Below are positions 9,268 through 20,525 of a stretch of DNA of 64,000 bases, in pieces (positions within the stretch are counted from its first letter, which is position 1; the number at the start of each line of letters is the position of its first letter). Both the position numbers and the translations under genes were made by a program. Origin of the DNA: Escherichia phage garuso. The notes beneath the pieces were generated by a model that was given only the letters and a program-made list of their open reading frames with translations, had not been told where the DNA came from and did no database searches. The stretch is taken from the sequence record MN850566.1; one strand, written 5' to 3'.

Positions 9268-9538
9268 AGAGAAGTGGGAGATTTTACCATTAGTCAGTGA
9301 AGGCGGTAATGGTTGTGAAATGTACATGATACGTGGTCATGTTCCAGAACCAATTGCACTTGAGATGGTAAACAACTTTACAGATGGCTCTTACAAAGAC
9401 TTAGGGGAGCCAAATATAAAGCAGCAATGGGTAAAGCCTGTACCAGACAGCACAGGTAACTGTAGTGTACTTTATCACGTTGTAGACCCTGCAAAATGCA
9501 AATCTGCAATGGCAGTAACAAACGTAACTTTTGATTGA
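9260..9538 (+). CDS. Hypothetical protein (92 aa)
   Basis: Track ORF overlapping neighbours. Confidence 0.4.
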   Translation: MAKEKWEILPLVSEGGNGCEMYMIRGHVPEPIALEMVNNFTDGSYKDLGEPNIKQQWVKPVPDSTGNCSVLYHVVDPAKCKSAMAVTNVTFD

Positions 9539-9549
9539 GAGAGAAAACT

Positions 9550-10431
9550 ATGAAAACTGTTATTGAAGCCGTCGTCACCGCACAAGAGAAATTCTTCCAC
9601 ACAGAAAAATTTAATATCATTCAATTCCCATCTGGAGAAATTGGTGGAAACTTCTCTGAAGATTTTGTTAAGTTTACTGAGCGTAATGCTGGTAAGATTG
9701 ATAATGTTATAATTACTGTACAGGGATATGACAAAGATACACTGTTTGCATTAGCTTTGGCTAAGGATGCCGTTGACAGTCTTGTTCCCCAGAAATCAGC
9801 GATGAAAACCGTTGTTTTCGGGTTCTTACCAAATGCTCGATATGACCGCCACATGTTCAAAGGTGATGCAGCAGCACTGAAAGTCTTTGCCAACCTAGTT
9901 AATGCAATGGGTTTTGATGCAGTATGTGCTCTTGACCCTCACAGTAATGTTGCAGAAAACTTATTTAAGTGCTTTCAAAGCATGAAGCAAAAAGATGTGG
10001 CAGTACACTTTGCAAGTGACCCACGCATTGATTTCTTGGTAGCCCCAGATGCAGGTGCAGCTAAGAAGACTGAAGATACCGCTAAAGAGGTGGATAAACC
10101 GTATATCACAATGTCTAAGGTGCGCAATCTTAAGACTGGTGAAATTACTGGTATGCGAATCCTTGATGATGTTGATTTGACAGATAAAACTGTCATGATT
10201 CTGGATGATATTTGTGATGGAGGCCGAACCTTCGTAGAGGCAGCTAAACACCTACGTGAAGCAGGTGCAAAACGTGTGGAACTCTATGTAACTCATGGTA
10301 TTTTCTCTAAAGGTGTTGAAAACTTACTTGACAACGGTATTGACCATATCTACACTACAAACACTTTAGGTGAAGCTAAAGACCGTGGCTTAACACATTA
10401 CGCCCAAGTTACTGTAGCAACCATTGATTGA
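9550..10431 (+). CDS. Ribose-phosphate pyrophosphokinase (Prs)-like protein
   Basis: ATG 9550 inside track ORF 9535..10431; type-I phosphoribosyltransferase signature (VMILDDICDGGRTFVEAAKHLREAGAKRV); directly upstream of the NAMPT-like gene. Confidence 0.75.
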   Translation: MKTVIEAVVTAQEKFFHTEKFNIIQFPSGEIGGNFSEDFVKFTERNAGKIDNVIITVQGYDKDTLFALALAKDAVDSLVPQKSAMKTVVFGFLPNARYDRHMFKGDAAALKVFANLVNAMGFDAVCALDPHSNVAENLFKCFQSMKQKDVAVHFASDPRIDFLVAPDAGAAKKTEDTAKEVDKPYITMSKVRNLKTGEITGMRILDDVDLTDKTVMILDDICDGGRTFVEAAKHLREAGAKRVELYVTHGIFSKGVENLLDNGIDHIYTTNTLGEAKDRGLTHYAQVTVATID

Positions 10432-10476
10432 AACTTTATAGGGGCTTGAAAGCCCCACTTTGAGAGAGATTAAAAG

Positions 10477-12258
10477 ATGACTAAATCACTTTACGCAGTA
10501 CCAGCAGGTCTTAATGCAGATGCTTACAAGGCATCACATATATATCAGTATCCAGATGCTACGCAATATCTTATGTTGAACCTGACACCACGTAGTGATA
10601 AATGGTTTAACAGCCCTTTGGCAATTGACGGTGTAGTGGCTTTTGGTATTCAACGTTTCGTTAAAGATTACTTGATAGACCACTGGAACGCCACTTTCTT
10701 TGAACGTGATAAAAAAGAAGCCATTGATGAAATCTTAGAAATCATGAATGGTGTTCTGGGTAAAGATGCTATCGGTCGAGAGCACTGGGAAGCACTTCAC
10801 GACTTAGGTTATCTACCAGTTGAAGTATACGCTGTAGAAGAAGGTACAGTTGTCCCTATGCGCGTCCCAATGATTGTCTTCCAGAACACTGTTTCAGGCT
10901 TCCATTGGGTAGCGGGGTATCTGGAAGATGCTTTCTCTGCTGAGATTTGGAAGGCTTGTACCATTGCAACTATTGCATTGCACTACAAACGTATCTGTAA
11001 GAAGTGGGCTGACCTTACTTGTGACAACGACTTGCATTTGCCTTATCAGTGCCATGACTTTGCTATGCGTGGTATGTCCGGCTTTACTGATGACGCATTT
11101 AACGCTGTAGGCCACTTAACCAGCTTTAAAGGAACTGATAGCTTCCCTGCTGTGTATACGGCTAAACGAATCTATGGACAGTCCTACCCAATCTCTGATA
11201 TTGGTAGCTCTGTACCAGCCACTGAGCACTCTGTAATGTGTGCAAACATTGCTTGGGAAGGTGGTAATGAGTTGATTGAAGAAGAAAGACGCTTTAAAGG
11301 TGAGTTACAAACCTTCCGTCGTTTCTTAACAGAAACTTACCCAACTGGTATTGCAAGTGTTGTTTCAGACACTTATAACTTCTGGAGAACTGTGTCAGAA
11401 ATTTTACCAGCACTTCGTAAAGAAATTATGGAACGTGATGGCAAACTGGTAATTCGTCCTGACTCTGGAGACCCTGTACATATTGTCACAGGTTATAAAG
11501 CAATCCACTTAGAATGTGCTAAAAAGGCTTATTACGAGCACCTAAGCAAGCTGGAAGCCAGTGACACAATGTTGAATGCTGTTCTGAACATGAAGCTTGA
11601 AAATATCAACTATGGTATTGCTGGATGGCTACTGTCAGAAGGCTACGAAATGGTTGTTGACAGAGAAGACTTTGAAGTTGCTGATACAGTGATGTTGAAA
11701 AATGCTTATATGGTTGGTTCTGCAAACGTTGTAACACGTCCTGTAGCTGAGATTGATGGAGCTATTAAGACACTGTACAACATTTTTGGGGGAACTATTA
11801 ACTCTAAAGGGTTTAAGGTACTGGATGAGCATATCGGACTTATCTATGGTGACTCTATCACGCTGGAACGTGCAAACGAAATCCTGAAGCGTCTGTATGA
11901 AATGGGGTTTGCAAGCTCTAACGTGGTGTTTGGTGTAGGCTCTTACACTTACCAGTACATGACTCGTGACACCTTTGCATTTGCTGTCAAAGCAACTCTT
12001 GCAAGCATTGGTGGCAAAGAGATTATGCTTGCAAAAGACCCTAAAACAGATAGTGGTGTTAAGAAATCTGCCTTTGGTGGTGTAGCGCCTATGTGGGATG
12101 GTGATAAGTTGAAAGCTGTAGATGGCTATGGAATACAGAGTTTTGCAGATGCACTTGAACACCCAGCTTGTGCTTTACGTTTAGTCTTTAGCGACTCTGA
12201 GCAGTTCGGTTATACAACTCTTGGTGATATTCGAAATAATATTGACAAGCAGCTTTAA
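10477..12258 (+). CDS. Nicotinamide phosphoribosyltransferase (NAMPT/NadV)-like protein
   Basis: 593-aa ORF; N-terminal NAMPT-like motif (…DAYKASHIYQYP…); GAGAGAG RBS; terminator downstream at about 12273-12296. Confidence 0.75.
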   Translation: MTKSLYAVPAGLNADAYKASHIYQYPDATQYLMLNLTPRSDKWFNSPLAIDGVVAFGIQRFVKDYLIDHWNATFFERDKKEAIDEILEIMNGVLGKDAIGREHWEALHDLGYLPVEVYAVEEGTVVPMRVPMIVFQNTVSGFHWVAGYLEDAFSAEIWKACTIATIALHYKRICKKWADLTCDNDLHLPYQCHDFAMRGMSGFTDDAFNAVGHLTSFKGTDSFPAVYTAKRIYGQSYPISDIGSSVPATEHSVMCANIAWEGGNELIEEERRFKGELQTFRRFLTETYPTGIASVVSDTYNFWRTVSEILPALRKEIMERDGKLVIRPDSGDPVHIVTGYKAIHLECAKKAYYEHLSKLEASDTMLNAVLNMKLENINYGIAGWLLSEGYEMVVDREDFEVADTVMLKNAYMVGSANVVTRPVAEIDGAIKTLYNIFGGTINSKGFKVLDEHIGLIYGDSITLERANEILKRLYEMGFASSNVVFGVGSYTYQYMTRDTFAFAVKATLASIGGKEIMLAKDPKTDSGVKKSAFGGVAPMWDGDKLKAVDGYGIQSFADALEHPACALRLVFSDSEQFGYTTLGDIRNNIDKQL

Positions 12259-12272
12259 AAGTATATGATAAG

Positions 12273-12296
12273 AGGCTCCTACGGGAGCCTTTTTAA
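12273..12296 (+). terminator. Intrinsic terminator after the NAMPT-like gene
   Basis: GGCTCC-TACG-GGAGCC hairpin followed by TTTTTAATTT. Confidence 0.65.
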
Positions 12297-12311
12297 TTTC
12301 TGGAGAAAACT

Positions 12312-12647
12312 ATGAAAATCAAAGAGATGAACATCAACATTGTCTTAGAAGAACGTTGGGAGAACATTAAGAAACCTGAAGATGGTAAAAAGTTCCTTAA
12401 CAAAATTTTAGTAGCAGCTAAAGAAGAACTGACTGGCAAGATTGCAGCAGCAATCACAATAAAAATCTGTGTAAAAGGTCTTCCACAACATCACCAATTT
12501 GCACTTGACGAGTTTAAAGAAAGCTTCTACAATCCAAACAAACAGATGCTTGAAAGTAACTTTGCAGTGTCTACAAGTATCGTCCATGACAGAAGCTTTA
12601 TCCTTTACAAGAATATGAGAGGTGAGTCATGCAAGCATATTGGATAG
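12312..12647 (+). CDS. Hypothetical protein (111 aa)
   Basis: Track ORF; GGAGAAAA RBS. Confidence 0.45.
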   Translation: MKIKEMNINIVLEERWENIKKPEDGKKFLNKILVAAKEELTGKIAAAITIKICVKGLPQHHQFALDEFKESFYNPNKQMLESNFAVSTSIVHDRSFILYKNMRGESCKHIG

Positions 12648-12805
12648 AAATTTTACTGTCACTTGGTAGTGTAGCAGTATTTGTTTACCTTCTTTGCAAG
12701 TACTATGCAGAGCACAAGAAGTGTGATTACTGCAACGGGGAAGGGTACACAAGAGCAGGTTGTTGCCCTATTTGTGGTGGTTCTGGTAAAATGTTTAATA
12801 AGTAA
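12629..12805 (+). CDS. Small Cys-rich membrane protein (58 aa), absent from the ORF track (below length cut-off)
   Basis: ATG 12629 after AGGTGAG; translation MQAYWIEILLSLGSVAVFVYLLCKYYAEHKKCDYCNGEGYTRAGCCPICGGSGKMFNK with one helix and CxxC…CxxC. Confidence 0.3.
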   Translation: MQAYWIEILLSLGSVAVFVYLLCKYYAEHKKCDYCNGEGYTRAGCCPICGGSGKMFNK

Positions 12806-12833
12806 TTTAACAGTAAACTAAGAGGAAAGTATT

Positions 12834-15200
12834 ATGCGCATGGTAAACGACCACGCAGAAGTGATTAAGAGTTCAACTTCTTTGGAGACATCTCAAGCAC
12901 AGATTACAATGACACCTGAAATGTTCAGCCTTTTGAGTTCAGGTGTATACACATTCAAAGAAAGGGCAGTGATTCGTGAACTGTCATGTAACGCAGTAGA
13001 TGCTCAAAAAGAAGCTGGAAAAGAGAACATCCCATTCCATGTGCATTTACCTACTCGATTTGAGCCTTACTTTGAAGTCCGTGACTTTGGAACTGGTTTA
13101 ACCCATGACAAAGTAATGAGTTTGTATCTGAACTATGGGGCTTCTACGAAGAATGACTCCAATGATTACATTGGTGCAATGGGTATCGGCTCAAAATCCC
13201 CATTTGCAATTGCTCAGTCATTCACAGTATCTAGCTATGTTGATGGTGTTGTTAATAAGTACTCTGTTTACCTTGAGAATGGTATCCCTCAAGTAACTAA
13301 GCTTACTACCAACCCAACAAATGAACCCAATGGTTTAGCTGTACGTGTGGCAGTTGCTGACCATCGTATTTCAAAGTTCTTTGAAGAGGCTGGTCACGTA
13401 TACTCATACTTTGCTGTAAAACCAGAAAGTAACATTGTGTATGATGATGTATTAGCAGATATGAATGTCATTGCCCGTGAAGAGGGTGTTTATGATGCTA
13501 TGATTCATAAGCAAAGCTGGCGTTCTAGTGGCAACAGGACAGAGTTTAATGTGGTGATGGGTAATATTGCCTACCCAGTGAACATGGAAGCATTACTTGG
13601 TGATGATTTCTTCAAAGTCTTGCCAGAGTTTTTCCGTAGGAGCGTAGACCTTGTAAACATCTACATGCCTATTGGTTCAGTGGCTATTGCAGCTTCTCGT
13701 GAAGCATTGCAGATGAATGACACGACAAAAAATGTTATCATTGAGGCTACTAAAAAGATAACTGAAGCCATTACAAAGGATGTTATCAAGAAAGTTAACA
13801 ACCAACCTACACTCATGGATGCTGCACAGGCTTATGCTGAGTTACGTTTGAACTCACGAGAGATGTTTAATGCTGTGTGTCCAAAGCTAGAGTGGGGAGG
13901 CATTAAGCTTGATTCTCTGGAAGAAGAATTACTAAACATTCGTCGTGGGATTATCTACGCAGAAGACGGCTCAGTCATTTATGAACGTGACGGTAAAGGT
14001 AATATCAAGGTTGATAGGAACGGGAACAATATCCCTAAAGTGGATTATCTTTATAATCCAGTTGCTTATGTCAAGTTCAACTCTTTAGAGAGTAAGATTC
14101 GTGCAGCAGCACTTTCCTACACTCAAGAGGCAAGTATGTTCAATATCTTTGGTGCAATGCGTAAAAGCCAAATTGAACAGTTTTTGTTCGTGATTAATGA
14201 CCGTCGTAATAAAAATGGCACTGAGAAGACTGTAGGCCGCAATCAGATTCTGCGTGGTGCATGTCGAGACTACGCTAGCGAGTCAAGCCTGTTCCACAGA
14301 TACAATGGTATTGTGTTTGTATTCTCGACTGAAAAAGAGTTAGATGATTTAATCAATCTACACAAGCTTGATAAAAGTTTGTTAAAGATTGTGAAGATGT
14401 CTGATAAGGAACACCATTATCAGCGTAAAGAAGCTGTGAGGGGTGTTGTAAAACTCTGGAAAGCTGTTCCATCAGAAACTAAAGCTTCATACACAGAGGT
14501 GTCAGAAGACCTAGATACAATTGAAGAACCCCAGCTTTATATCAAGGCAGTAGGCGACACAGTTGATGGTGAATGTTTTTGCTCATCCCCAGAAGATGTA
14601 GCTAAAACAATTGCTAATGTTATAGGAAAAACAGTCTATGTTTTCCGAAAAGCAAATTGGAAAAAGATACCAGAAGACTGGATTGAAGTAGATGAGAAGC
14701 TATTGAATGACAGCTTAACTGATGTTCACTGGATTAATCATAACAGGTATATGACACGTATCTATATGAATGGTGTCCTTGACCTTACAAGTAGTTGGAT
14801 TATTGCCAGAAACTTTACGTTTAATAACAAGAAGATTTCTCGCGGGTATTGCTATTCACGAGATACAAACAAAACCATCTTCTTAGAAGGTAATGAGAAT
14901 GCTGTTGAGGCAATGTTTGGTAAGATTCAGTATGTGGCTGCACCGTTTGCATACACTTACACTATCAGTGTTCTTCAGGATTTGAAGTCATGCCTTGACA
15001 ATGATACAAAACTGTACAAAAAGATTAAGAAAGCGGGTGACCGCATGGTTATCAAACTGACAAACTATCTTTCAAAAAGAAAACAAGAAAACTTCTTGCT
15101 TTCTCATTTAGATTGGAATAAAGTGTCACCCATCGAAGTGAGTAAGTTCTTAGGTTTTGATGTGAAGTGTGTTCCAGAAGGAACTACAATTTACGATTAA
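12834..15200 (+). CDS. Hsp90/HtpG-like GHKL ATPase-domain protein (788 aa)
   Basis: N-terminus has Bergerat-fold boxes in Hsp90-like order: AVIRELSCNAVDA (N box), DFGTGLT (G1), GAMGIGSKSPF (G2); AGAGGA RBS; remaining ~600 aa unassigned. Confidence 0.55.
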   Translation: MRMVNDHAEVIKSSTSLETSQAQITMTPEMFSLLSSGVYTFKERAVIRELSCNAVDAQKEAGKENIPFHVHLPTRFEPYFEVRDFGTGLTHDKVMSLYLNYGASTKNDSNDYIGAMGIGSKSPFAIAQSFTVSSYVDGVVNKYSVYLENGIPQVTKLTTNPTNEPNGLAVRVAVADHRISKFFEEAGHVYSYFAVKPESNIVYDDVLADMNVIAREEGVYDAMIHKQSWRSSGNRTEFNVVMGNIAYPVNMEALLGDDFFKVLPEFFRRSVDLVNIYMPIGSVAIAASREALQMNDTTKNVIIEATKKITEAITKDVIKKVNNQPTLMDAAQAYAELRLNSREMFNAVCPKLEWGGIKLDSLEEELLNIRRGIIYAEDGSVIYERDGKGNIKVDRNGNNIPKVDYLYNPVAYVKFNSLESKIRAAALSYTQEASMFNIFGAMRKSQIEQFLFVINDRRNKNGTEKTVGRNQILRGACRDYASESSLFHRYNGIVFVFSTEKELDDLINLHKLDKSLLKIVKMSDKEHHYQRKEAVRGVVKLWKAVPSETKASYTEVSEDLDTIEEPQLYIKAVGDTVDGECFCSSPEDVAKTIANVIGKTVYVFRKANWKKIPEDWIEVDEKLLNDSLTDVHWINHNRYMTRIYMNGVLDLTSSWIIARNFTFNNKKISRGYCYSRDTNKTIFLEGNENAVEAMFGKIQYVAAPFAYTYTISVLQDLKSCLDNDTKLYKKIKKAGDRMVIKLTNYLSKRKQENFLLSHLDWNKVSPIEVSKFLGFDVKCVPEGTTIYD

Positions 15201-15279
15201 AGTGTTTGACAAGGGGCTTCGAAGCCCCTTAGAATAGCCTTACAAAATGATTTATTAACTAACAAGAGAGAGTAATAAG

Positions 15280-16389
15280 ATGACTACTAAAACTAAAGCA
15301 CAGATTGACGCAGAAATTTACGAACTGGTTAAAGAAGGTAAGCTGACTAAAACAGCTATTGCACAGAAGTTCAATACTTCAACCCGTTCAGTTGGTCGTG
15401 CTGTAGAGCGTCATGAAGCAACCTTAAAAGGTAAGAAAAAGGTAGCTTCTAAACCAGCTACGAAGACTTTGAAGCAAGTTGCTAAATCAGTTAAAAAGAA
15501 AGCTGACAAACCAGTTGAAAAGGTTGTTAAAGAGCCTGTACAGAAAGCTCCGGTAAATAAACTGCATGAAGCTATGCAGAATGGCAACCAGATTGAGTAC
15601 ATGATTACTGGCGACTCTGTTATCATGACTTTCGGTGCAGATTCTGAAATCGTTGAATCTACCCATCCGAACTACAAAGAAATCGTGATGGCTGTTGTAT
15701 CCGGTGAGTATAAGAAAGCTTTCGAACTGATGAACATTCGTAAGTCTATCGAAAACTTCACTCAGGGTGCTATCACCATCAAAGGTGACAAGTTATTCTA
15801 CGGTGCTGTTGAGATGCGTTCTACTCTGGTTGACCGTATTCTTCACATGATGAAGACTGGAGATAAGGGTTTTGAACGCCTTGTGATGTTCTTCGAAAAA
15901 CTGATGGAAAACCCATCTAAAGACTCTGTAGAACAACTTTGGGGATTCGTATCTCACCTTGATGTTGAAATTGATGAAGAAGGCTACATCATTGGTTGGA
16001 AGAAAGTCTCTACTCATGAAGGCAAGCTGGTTGACTCCCACACCTACAGAGTACCTAATGATTTGGGTAACATTGTAGAAATGCCACGTTGGATGGTTGA
16101 TAATAACCGTAACGTGACTTGCTCTCAGGGTCTTCACGTTGGTGCTTGGGATTATGTTCGTTGCTTCTCAGGTGATACAATCCTGAAGGTTCGTGTCCAT
16201 CCACGAGATGTTGTATCTGTTCCAACTGATTACAACGATATGAAGATGCGTTCGTCTCGTTATGAAGTTGCAGCAATCGTTGATAATCAACGTAAAGTGC
16301 TGAAAGAATGGGATGGCAAGACTGAAGCTTTGCATGTCATCGTTGGCACTGCTGGTGAACTAATCTCCCAACGTAAACGTGAAATCTAA
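15280..16389 (+). CDS. Hypothetical protein with possible N-terminal DNA-binding region (369 aa)
   Basis: Track ORF; own promoter-like TTGACA-N17/18-TAGAAT at about 15206-15237; terminator downstream at about 16405-16432. Confidence 0.5.
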   Translation: MTTKTKAQIDAEIYELVKEGKLTKTAIAQKFNTSTRSVGRAVERHEATLKGKKKVASKPATKTLKQVAKSVKKKADKPVEKVVKEPVQKAPVNKLHEAMQNGNQIEYMITGDSVIMTFGADSEIVESTHPNYKEIVMAVVSGEYKKAFELMNIRKSIENFTQGAITIKGDKLFYGAVEMRSTLVDRILHMMKTGDKGFERLVMFFEKLMENPSKDSVEQLWGFVSHLDVEIDEEGYIIGWKKVSTHEGKLVDSHTYRVPNDLGNIVEMPRWMVDNNRNVTCSQGLHVGAWDYVRCFSGDTILKVRVHPRDVVSVPTDYNDMKMRSSRYEVAAIVDNQRKVLKEWDGKTEALHVIVGTAGELISQRKREI

Positions 16390-16404
16390 TAAGTAATTTC
16401 TTAA

Positions 16405-16432
16405 AAGGCTGCTTCGGCGGCCTTTTTTATTT
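16405..16432 (+). terminator. Intrinsic terminator
   Basis: AGGCTGC-TTCG-GCGGCCT hairpin followed by TTTTTTATTT. Confidence 0.6.
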
Positions 16433-16489
16433 GTATTTTGTGCAGAGTGCTGTATAATTGTTGTCACGATAAACTAAACAGGAGAACCA

Positions 16490-17038
16490 ATGAAGAAATT
16501 GATTCTAGGTTTGTGCTTAATGTTTACAGCACACTTATCTTATGCAGTTGACTGCCCAGAGCTATCAATTAGCCAAAAAGTAAACATGTTAAAAGCTTAC
16601 CAGTATGGTGAGAATAACATGGGTAAAGGTTGGGGTATCACTCTAGCTGCTATAGCCTTACAAGAGTCAGAGTTAGGTCTGAAGGTAGAGAATAAAAAGA
16701 CACATGATTATGGTATCTTCCAGAATCACTTGAAGACTGTTGTAAAGCGTAACAAAATTAGTCCTAATGTGGCTAAAAAGAAACTCTTAAAAGACTTTGA
16801 CTATGCTGCGAAGGAAACTCACAAAGAGCTTGAGTTTTGGACAAAGGTGCATGGTCAGCCAAAGTCAAAGAAGACTTTACAAAAAGTTTTAGCATCATAT
16901 AATGCTGGGTATTCGTACAAAATCCCTAAAGCTAAGAAATATTCTCAAGATGTCTATAACAACATGAAAGTCATTGCTCAATGTGAATTTGCAATAAACA
17001 TTTCTAAGGTAAACCATGAAAAAATTAAAAAAGTCTGA
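16490..17038 (+). CDS. Secreted lytic transglycosylase-like protein (SLT domain)
   Basis: N-terminal signal peptide (MKKLILGLCLMFTAHLSYA) and SLT-like catalytic region (…LAAIALQESELG…). Confidence 0.55.
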   Translation: MKKLILGLCLMFTAHLSYAVDCPELSISQKVNMLKAYQYGENNMGKGWGITLAAIALQESELGLKVENKKTHDYGIFQNHLKTVVKRNKISPNVAKKKLLKDFDYAAKETHKELEFWTKVHGQPKSKKTLQKVLASYNAGYSYKIPKAKKYSQDVYNNMKVIAQCEFAINISKVNHEKIKKV

Positions 17039-18238: not shown

Positions 18239-18586
18239 ATGACATTTAAAGAGTTCTGTCAAGCTACTTTCATAATTGTTTTCTTAGTTGGGGCAGGTGT
18301 CTGGGGAGGATACTCTTACAGAGACTATCAAGTTGCTGAAACTGAGCTAAACAATCAAAAGCTCATAAGTGTTGCTAAAGATGCTTATCAGGAAGGATTA
18401 GTAACATTGAGCACCAATTACAAAAATGATTTGAAGGATGTGCTTGCTAAGAATAAGCATACAAAAGAGGTACTAACATATGAAAAAACTAAGCCAGAGT
18501 TTTATAATGTTTGTGTTACTGATAACTATGTCAGGGTGTTCAACGAACAAAGTGAGCAGTACATTCAAAAACTCCCAAGTAAGTGA
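18239..18586 (+). CDS. i-spanin-like protein (Rz-like)
   Basis: N-terminal transmembrane helix (FIIVFLVGAGVWGGY) followed by a charged region; an o-spanin-like ORF is embedded in its 3' end in another frame. Confidence 0.5.
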   Translation: MTFKEFCQATFIIVFLVGAGVWGGYSYRDYQVAETELNNQKLISVAKDAYQEGLVTLSTNYKNDLKDVLAKNKHTKEVLTYEKTKPEFYNVCVTDNYVRVFNEQSEQYIQKLPSK

Positions 18587-18749
18587 GAGTGATAAGTACA
18601 CTCAAGAAGAATCACGGTATATCATCAAAGGCAACACAGGCAGTGATGTAGCAGCAGCCCTTGAGTTCTATCGTGACGGCTTTTACCAGTGCACAATCAA
18701 AGCTAACAACCTTATTGACATGATTTTATTAGGGAATAAGCAGCAATGA
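18480..18749 (+). CDS. o-spanin-like outer-membrane lipoprotein (Rz1-like)
   Basis: Lipoprotein signal with lipobox (…LLITMSGC…); overlaps the 3' end of the i-spanin-like ORF out of frame. Confidence 0.5.
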   Translation: MKKLSQSFIMFVLLITMSGCSTNKVSSTFKNSQVSESDKYTQEESRYIIKGNTGSDVAAALEFYRDGFYQCTIKANNLIDMILLGNKQQ

Positions 18750-19739: not shown

Positions 19740-20525
19740 ATGGGTATTGTAAAAATCATCAATGGTGATATCTTTGCTGCATTTGATAAAGGTAAGTTTG
19801 ACATCATTGGTCATGGTTGTAACTGTATGAACCTAATGGGTGCAGGTATCGCTGATAAGATTTCTAAACTTTACCCAAAAGCATATGAGACCGATACAGA
19901 AGTTTATCTATATGCAGGCGGTATAGGCCACAAACCCTGTGAAAATTTACTAGGTAACTTCTCTGTAGCACGTTTAAAACAAGGCCGTATAGCTAACCTT
20001 TACACTCAGCTTAAGACTGGTAAAGATGCCCGATACAGTGCTTTAGAGTCATCTTTGAAACAGCTTAACAGATACTGTGAAGTCAATCAGTTGAAGAAAG
20101 TCGGGTTACCTATGATTGGTGCAGGTATCGGTGGGCTAGACGCTCAAGCCGTCACAGTTATCATTAATCAGGTGATGAAGAGTGTAGATGTGTATCTGTA
20201 TGTCTATGAAGGAGAGATGTACCACAAGTTACGCTCAGGTTGGAAGAACTACTGTGAACCAGAATACTTTGCAGGTGTAGTAACGTTCACAGACAATACA
20301 GTTACCCTCTTCAGACGAAGAAAAGGTAAGATACATCAAAGTAACCCTCCGGTTGAAAAGATGTCTCTAAGTAACGCTCTAGTTACCCACCTGTCGAAGA
20401 GCAATCACAGGATTGCAGTAACATTTGGTAGTGATGCAGACACTTATATCTATGCAAGAACTGATGAGGGTATCGAGACAGTTTTCTCTTCGCCAGAAGT
20501 TACCTTCTTAGACGCAAAGAACTAA
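19740..20525 (+). CDS. Macro-domain (ADP-ribose binding/processing) protein
   Basis: 261-aa ORF; N-terminal half has macro-like glycine-rich motifs (…IIGHGCNCMNLMGAGIADKI… and …GLPMIGAGIGGLD…). Confidence 0.55.
   Translation: MGIVKIINGDIFAAFDKGKFDIIGHGCNCMNLMGAGIADKISKLYPKAYETDTEVYLYAGGIGHKPCENLLGNFSVARLKQGRIANLYTQLKTGKDARYSALESSLKQLNRYCEVNQLKKVGLPMIGAGIGGLDAQAVTVIINQVMKSVDVYLYVYEGEMYHKLRSGWKNYCEPEYFAGVVTFTDNTVTLFRRRKGKIHQSNPPVEKMSLSNALVTHLSKSNHRIAVTFGSDADTYIYARTDEGIETVFSSPEVTFLDAKN

Follow-up and report, generated by a model that had tools for sequence, protein, structure and literature searches.

A probable rIIA gene in Escherichia phage garuso, with a predicted Hsp90-like ATPase head and a partner rIIB

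This analysis concerns an open reading frame (ORF) in the DNA of Escherichia phage garuso (sequence record MN850566.1), located at positions 12834..15200 of a 64,000-nucleotide (nt) stretch that we call the window. The ORF comprises 788 codons between an ATG start and a TAA stop, has a GAGG ribosome-binding site 8 nt upstream, and is accompanied by no competing ORF of at least 60 amino acids (aa) in the other frames of the ORF list. It is very probable that this gene is the rIIA gene of a Felixounavirus (a FelixO1-like myovirus of E. coli and Salmonella), that the gene at 15280..16389 is rIIB, and that together they constitute an rII counter-defence module. The rII genes are among the most famous loci in genetics, being the subject of Benzer’s fine-structure map and of work on the triplet code.

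We interpret the locus as an rIIA-rIIB pair, and not as an orphan GHKL protein, because of matches in PHROG, in phage warpig, in T4 and among structure models. PHROG 612 (“RIIA lysis inhibitor”) matches the full length of the protein (E 4.9e-189; aa 1-770 vs. profile positions 1-716 of 725). The 4.1-kb stretch containing rIIA and rIIB has 99.2% DNA identity with Escherichia phage warpig (Felixounavirus, Ounavirinae), whose record labels the two genes rIIA and rIIB and whose rIIA protein is 99.5% identical. At least 80% of this stretch is contained in 209 phage records. The rIIA protein also has 98.2% aa identity with bas63_0084 of Bas63 (JohannRWettstein) and 62.5% with SUSP1 RIIA. Bas63 and SUSP1 belong to the Ounavirinae, like garuso, and the common gene order is phosphoribosyl pyrophosphate (PRPP) synthetase, nicotinamide phosphoribosyltransferase (NAMPT), small ORFs, rIIA, rIIB, lysin and polynucleotide kinase. 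The rII genes of Bas63 (Qat) and SUSP1 (Rex) are the experimentally tested copies.

T4 rIIA (AAD42647, 725 aa) is homologous over most of its length, and has the same ATPase motifs and ASRE loop as the protein studied here, which is 63 aa longer. Identity is 32% over aa 24-317 (BLASTP, E 2e-37) and about 20% beyond. Our family profile aligns to T4 rIIA with an hhalign probability of 100% (E 1.2e-54, 556 columns, aa 1-628 vs. 1-593), and models of T4-like rIIA proteins (KVP40, 44RR2.8t and others) superpose on the garuso rIIA model over ~800 columns. Both rIIA and rIIB are already known genes that are annotated in hundreds of near-identical GenBank records. The earlier note on this DNA had left open a GHKL ATPase of unknown function, but this description did not survive, given these annotations and the counter-defence phenotypes of orthologues (PMC11482910, PMC11879866). 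The single A6 run within rIIA, at 13727, is no more than is expected by chance, and we therefore make no claim of a T4-style contingency locus.

The partner protein, RIIB, consists of an N-terminal helix-turn-helix (HTH)-like segment, a Lys-rich linker and a conserved C-terminal domain; the HTH matches, at aa 10-45, are sub-threshold. Over 331 aa, RIIB shares 35% of its residues with T4 RIIB (E 5e-61), and its identity is 88% to the Bas63 counterpart and 82% to that in SUSP1. As in T4, the two genes are adjacent. The earlier note’s suggestion of a two-gene unit was correct: among 50,697 phage records, 2925 have rIIA homologues and 2907 have rIIB homologues. The counts also correspond within host genera (Escherichia 931 and 925, Klebsiella 378 and 379, Salmonella 288 and 288, Streptomyces 93 and 93, for rIIA and rIIB, respectively). 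Moreover, phage RB43 carries a natural RIIA-RIIB fusion of 1049 aa, and PHROG 609 covers both RIIA and RIIB proteins. The matched counts, the fusion and the common PHROG suggest that RIIA and RIIB act together.

Two further observations concern the divergence of the pair. The last 29 aa of rIIB (16300..16389) are 34% identical to those of Bas63, vs. 84-100% for the remainder. Also, between Felixounavirus and SUSP1, rIIA diverges much more than rIIB (62.5% vs. 82%). In the sequences compared, the pattern resembles mosaicism or an arms race.

Recent screens present the pair as a broad counter-defence that acts on both RexAB and QatABCD, and that also triggers a bacterial gasdermin. In Bas63, deletion of g84 or g85 reduces plating 10^4-10^5-fold on cells with qatABCD, and complementation restores it (PMC11482910). 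That preprint gives “>80% homology” between Bas63 g84/g85 and T4, whereas the identities that we measured are 32% over 306 aa in rIIA and 35% in rIIB. Knockdown of RIIA or RIIB in SUSP1, T4, N4, MM02 and EdH4 makes no difference on naive E. coli, but reduces plating in the presence of lambda RexAB (PMC11879866). Similarly, T4 phages with transposon insertions in rIIA or rIIB become depleted solely when RexAB is present (bioRxiv 10.1101/2025.11.20.689424). In addition, a gasdermin/CARD system of bacteria senses RIIB as its trigger (PMC10312443). By analogy to these orthologues, in which the function has been shown, the garuso pair would be a conditional counter-defence module that is dispensable on naive hosts and needed against certain abortive-infection systems.

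The predicted ATPase module of rIIA is made up of two domains, at about aa 26-330: a Bergerat fold and a transducer-like domain. The N box (E..N..D), G1 (DxGxG) and G2 (GxxGxG) occur in this order, and E49, N53, D56, D84, G86, G88, G114, G117, G119, K121, R289 and E290 do not vary across 40 aligned homologues, whose identity to the query is 21-68%. These boxes, which the earlier note had assigned to an Hsp90-like Bergerat ATPase, are therefore confirmed, and profiles and Foldseek likewise lead to Hsp90. In the AlphaFold2 model, whose mean predicted local distance difference test (pLDDT) score is 83.7, the alpha/beta sandwich of GHKL proteins is present, so that structure prediction supports the fold as well. 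All of the top 50 Foldseek matches in PDB belong to the Hsp90 family (best E 8.6e-16). Low-confidence positions in the model are aa 1-24 and aa 102-118, which fits the mobile N-terminal strap and ATP lid of GHL ATPases.

Sequence profiles also select the Hsp90 family. A direct PDB search with the single rIIA sequence gave no match, and the family profile was needed to obtain any. With this profile, the only matches are Hsp90-family chains (TRAP1, E 1.4e-4, and HtpG), and MutL, GyrB, Topo VI, MORC and histidine kinases are all unmatched; T4 rIIA alone likewise matches only Hsp90 N-terminal domains. Solved structures of RIIA or RIIB were not found in the PDB profile searches. In NCBIfam, the sub-threshold matches are “HSP90 family protein” (2.9e-11 at aa 30-134; 42.5 bits vs. 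a cut-off of 455) and the sacsin ATP-binding domain. Using hhalign, a single HtpG template gave 94.6%, nine diverse HtpG-family sequences (plasmid-derived) gave 98.1% (E 7.5e-14), and the best single template was a Listeria “HSP90 family protein” paralogue (E 4.7e-12). Pfam is less informative: the protein itself yields nothing useful (only DotY at 0.063), and GHKL models surface in only 15 of the 40 homologues. The Bergerat N-domain common to rIIA and the Hsp90 family (HtpG, TRAP1, GRP94 and the NCBIfam NF010683 paralogue) includes the Hsp90-typical N-terminal helix, with LYS.KE..RELISNA.DA in the family and VYTFKERAVIRELSCNAVDA in rIIA. On the basis of these profiles and the model, we conclude that the N-terminus of rIIA is an Hsp90-like GHKL ATPase domain, and predict that it binds and hydrolyzes ATP.

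A separate match to the head came from PADLOC, where aa 20-134 (12834..13235) match the model TmtA with E 1.1e-8; this profile has 1302 positions and represents a protein of a candidate defence system. Therefore, Hsp90-like heads may be common to phage counter-defence and host defence proteins.

The second domain was assigned by comparison of folds, where the paired values were 15.3 and 299 for TRAP1, 14.9 and 297 for Topo VI-B, 14.8 and 260 for MORC2, 14.5 and 254 for MORC3, 14.2 and 260 for SMCHD1, 13.4 and 246 for the T6 topo II ATPase, 13.0 and 250 for ParE, and 13.0 and 238 for MutL. Given these values, aa ~196-330 correspond to the transducer-like domain that members of the gyrase/Hsp90/MutL branch share. 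The fold alone favours no single branch, and the near-equal score of Topo VI-B is thus no evidence of a topoisomerase subunit. The domain carries a loop with the consensus (I/V)-x-(A/T)-A-S-R-E-x-L, whose R289 and E290 are kept in all 40 homologues. This loop is similar to N-(V/L)-S-R-E-x-L-Q of Hsp90, the loop that bears the catalytic arginine (R336 in HtpG, R380 in yeast Hsp90). The Hsp90 family, whose arginine loop SRE.L(Q) is also in the second domain, is the sole family selected by the PDB sequence profile. A Viterbi alignment of aa 1-340 extends to HtpG 376 and pairs R289 with R336, an isolated profile of aa 190-340 gives the identical register against Hsp90 (E 5.7e-4), and 7 of 9 single templates do so too, each being non-significant on its own. 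These alignments are suggestive of the ASRE loop being the counterpart of the Hsp90 catalytic-arginine loop.

Beyond these two domains, the resemblance to Hsp90 ends. Neither the remainder of the Hsp90 middle domain nor the C-terminal dimerization domain is matched in rIIA, the biological role is different, and aa 331-788 compared to Hsp90 using hhalign have a probability of 0.1%. This C-terminal region of ~450 aa is confidently folded in the AlphaFold2 model (pLDDT mostly 85-95), and no solved structure matched it. Its identity to SUSP1 is 51-54%, vs. 86% for the head. Such fast evolution agrees with PMC7824862, where rIIA is described as having a GHKL head and a C-terminal part that varies. 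In the searchable literature, a search for links between rIIA and Hsp90, Bergerat, MORC or HATPase led to that paper alone as one that mentions GHKL.

We propose a mechanism built on the ATPase module. RIIA would be a GHL-type ATPase with an intact glycine lid, in which E49 acts as general base, N53 binds Mg and D84 binds adenine. R289 would reach the gamma-phosphate as a sensor, like R336 of HtpG. ATP binding might then close the lid, swap the disordered strap (aa 1-24) and dimerize the heads, as in other GHL ATPases; we infer such an ATP-driven, dimerizing clamp from the conserved residues and the model. Recognition of the target could come from RIIB, through its HTH and conserved C-domain, and from the C-terminal ~450 aa of RIIA. 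The complex may block either the triggering or the membrane-depolarizing output of a defence system, and its target might be the defence sensor, the sensor’s DNA-protein trigger or a membrane component. A further-reaching hypothesis, to which we would give somewhat less than an even chance, places RIIA within the Hsp90 lineage itself, as an offshoot carried by phages. The head and SRE loop would have been kept, and the client-binding and C-terminal parts replaced by a fast-evolving phage module, resulting in an ATP-timed clamp that, with RIIB, would keep either the sensor of a defence system or its trigger inactive. If this hypothesis is true, the 70-year-old rII problem gains a concrete catalytic mechanism that can be mutated (E49, D84, R289). 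The pocket formed by E49, N53 and D84 and the loop with R289, all invariant, are precise sites for point mutants that address the question of ATP turnover, for instance in the genetically tractable Bas63.

It is important to emphasize that several points weigh against our main explanation. The Thr of GHKL motif IV (G-T-x-[IV]) is replaced, as this position aligns to G167-L168 (NGLAVRV), and T4 has G-I. Taken alone, the sequence evidence for the second domain is weak, and posterior (maximum-accuracy, MAC) realignment is confident within aa 27-175 only. The proteins encoded here have no hydrophobic segment (maximum KD19 1.29 in rIIA and 0.78 in rIIB), while the T4 rII proteins are reported to be membrane-associated, so a membrane link is left unexplained. 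The evidence on Qat rests on a preprint (PMC11482910), and reviews still call the rII mechanism unclear (PMC10312443, PMC11879866). Finally, the searchable literature reports no ATPase activity, dimerization or direct target for any RIIA.

The most serious alternative differs in mechanism, and not in the identification of rIIA. RIIA might be an ATP-gated clamp that acts on DNA in the manner of MORC or Topo VI-B and that, loaded with RIIB, hides or remodels phage DNA-protein intermediates sensed by RexA or Qat. The HTH of RIIB is in favour of this idea. However, DNA-binding, Toprim, CW and coiled-coil partner domains went undetected in RIIA, and the PDB sequence profiles select Hsp90 and none of MORC, SMCHD1, MutL, GyrB or Topo VI. 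Also, the sensor is the Arg of an Hsp90-like SRE loop instead of the Lys of topoisomerases and MutL. We therefore consider the DNA-acting clamp unlikely. The same module raises the question of a type II topoisomerase ATPase subunit, since rIIA does have the GHKL and transducer domains of type II/IIB subunits. However, this module is generic, being common to Hsp90, MutL and MORC, and rIIA is orthologous to T4 rIIA, while T4 encodes its topo II separately (gp39/gp52/gp60). With no Toprim domain, cleavage subunit or other partner domain, and no topoisomerase in the PDB profile search, membership in this group is effectively refuted. The earlier note had itself argued against topoisomerase II, MutL and histidine kinases, and was right, in that Toprim, DNA_gyraseB, MutL_C and HisKA domains are unmatched.

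That note had also raised the possibility of a phage chaperone, i.e., an Hsp90-like foldase that matures phage proteins. Besides the Hsp90-like N-domain, a database entry for a fragment of the rIIA protein is titled “Molecular chaperone, HSP90 family [phage EC6]”. However, Pfam HSP90 (PF00183, the middle and C-terminal domains) is matched in none of the 40 homologues, and the C-terminal hhalign and NCBIfam values given above are equally unfavourable. Moreover, knockdown or insertion is harmless on defence-free hosts in T4, SUSP1, N4, MM02 and EdH4 (PMC11879866; bioRxiv 10.1101/2025.11.20.689424), and the normal plating of rIIA-deficient phage on permissive hosts already implies normal protein folding and assembly. 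Because phages need the rII genes only when the host has a defence system, a general chaperone role is improbable. We give slightly less credence still to a regulator of lysis timing that directly inhibits a holin or endolysin. This idea follows the product names in PHROG and GenBank, and the pair does lie just upstream of an SLT-like lysin and spanins, an adjacency that may have reinforced a misleading label. However, the rapid lysis of T4 rII mutants depends on host and prophages, the T4 record reads “protector from prophage-induced early lysis”, the demonstrated phenotypes are defence-dependent, and rIIA has no transmembrane or holin-like features. Compared to these alternatives, an rII counter-defence module with an ATP-driven clamp of Hsp90 type is the explanation that we prefer.

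The positions of the features discussed, and of others near the pair, are listed in Table 1.

Table 1. Features of the rII locus and its surroundings, by position in the window.
Feature	Position	Strand	Remarks
PRPP-synthetase-like gene and NAMPT gene	9535..12258	+	just upstream of rII
58-aa ORF directly upstream of rIIA	12629..12805	+	overlaps end of preceding gene by 19 nt
rIIA coding sequence (probable), 788 aa and stop	12834..15200	+	ORF list, PHROG 612, comparisons with warpig, Bas63 and T4
Predicted Bergerat-fold (GHKL) ATP-binding domain, Hsp90 type, aa 26-195	12909..13418	+	contains N box, G1, G2/lid
N box ELSCNAVD (E49, N53, D56)	12978-13001	+	
G1 DFGTG (D84, G86, G88)	13083-13097	+	
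G2/lid GAMGIGSK (G114, G117, G119, K121)	13173-13196	+	
Transducer-like second domain, aa 196-330	13419..13823	+	carries invariant Arg loop
Loop I-A-A-S-R289-E290-A-L-Q	13686-13712	+	invariant R289, E290
rIIA-specific C-terminal region, aa 331-788	13824..15197	+	well folded in model, fast-diverging
Putative sigma-70-like promoter match TTGACA-18-TAGAAT	15206..15235	+	in 79-nt rIIA-rIIB gap; consensus scan, 11/12 positions
rIIB coding sequence (probable), 369 aa	15280..16389	+	PHROG 609 “RIIB” E 3e-88; annotated rIIB in warpig, Bas63, SUSP1
Intrinsic-terminator-like hairpin and T run	16403..16426	+	14 nt past rIIB stop codon
SLT-like lysin	16490..17038	+	Pfam SLT 0.0012, sub-threshold
Overlapping i-spanin and o-spanin genes	18239..18749	+	with lysin, within 2 kb after rIIB
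Macro-domain protein	19740..20525	+	downstream of rII

The pair appears to be delimited as a unit. A terminator-like hairpin similar to that after rIIB, at 12270-12293, ends the preceding NAMPT gene, and the rII unit is therefore bracketed by such sites. The putative promoter match between rIIA and rIIB is the sole exact match of its kind within the window, and its spacer contains a perfect 7-bp GC hairpin (GGGGCTT-CGAA-AAGCCCC, -11.6 kcal/mol). An Rfam scan of positions 12000-17000 found nothing.

Since the PRPP-synthetase/NAMPT pair lies upstream of rIIAB and the Macro-domain protein downstream, rIIAB is situated within a run of counter-defence genes. The practical result for the window is thus a correct annotation, namely rIIA and rIIB amid this run. 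In Bas63, the counterpart of the upstream pair is g79/g80, which reconstitutes NAD+ and acts against both Sir2-HerA and retron Ec86.

In the 58-aa ORF directly upstream of rIIA, a hydrophobic helix at the N-terminus precedes two CxxCxGxG motifs like those of DnaJ zinc fingers. This ORF matches PHROG 3931 (E 1.8e-33), a family with no assigned function, and Pfam DnaJ_CXXCXGXG at only 0.025. We compared it to rIIA.1, the gene upstream of rIIA in T4, as a possible counterpart, but this Cys-rich membrane ORF is unrelated. It is unannotated in warpig, and 57 of its 58 residues are identical to those of bas63_0083, a “putative membrane protein”. A candidate membrane-anchored DnaJ-like finger beside a predicted Hsp90-like ATPase, whose relatives are reportedly membrane-associated, is a suggestive arrangement.

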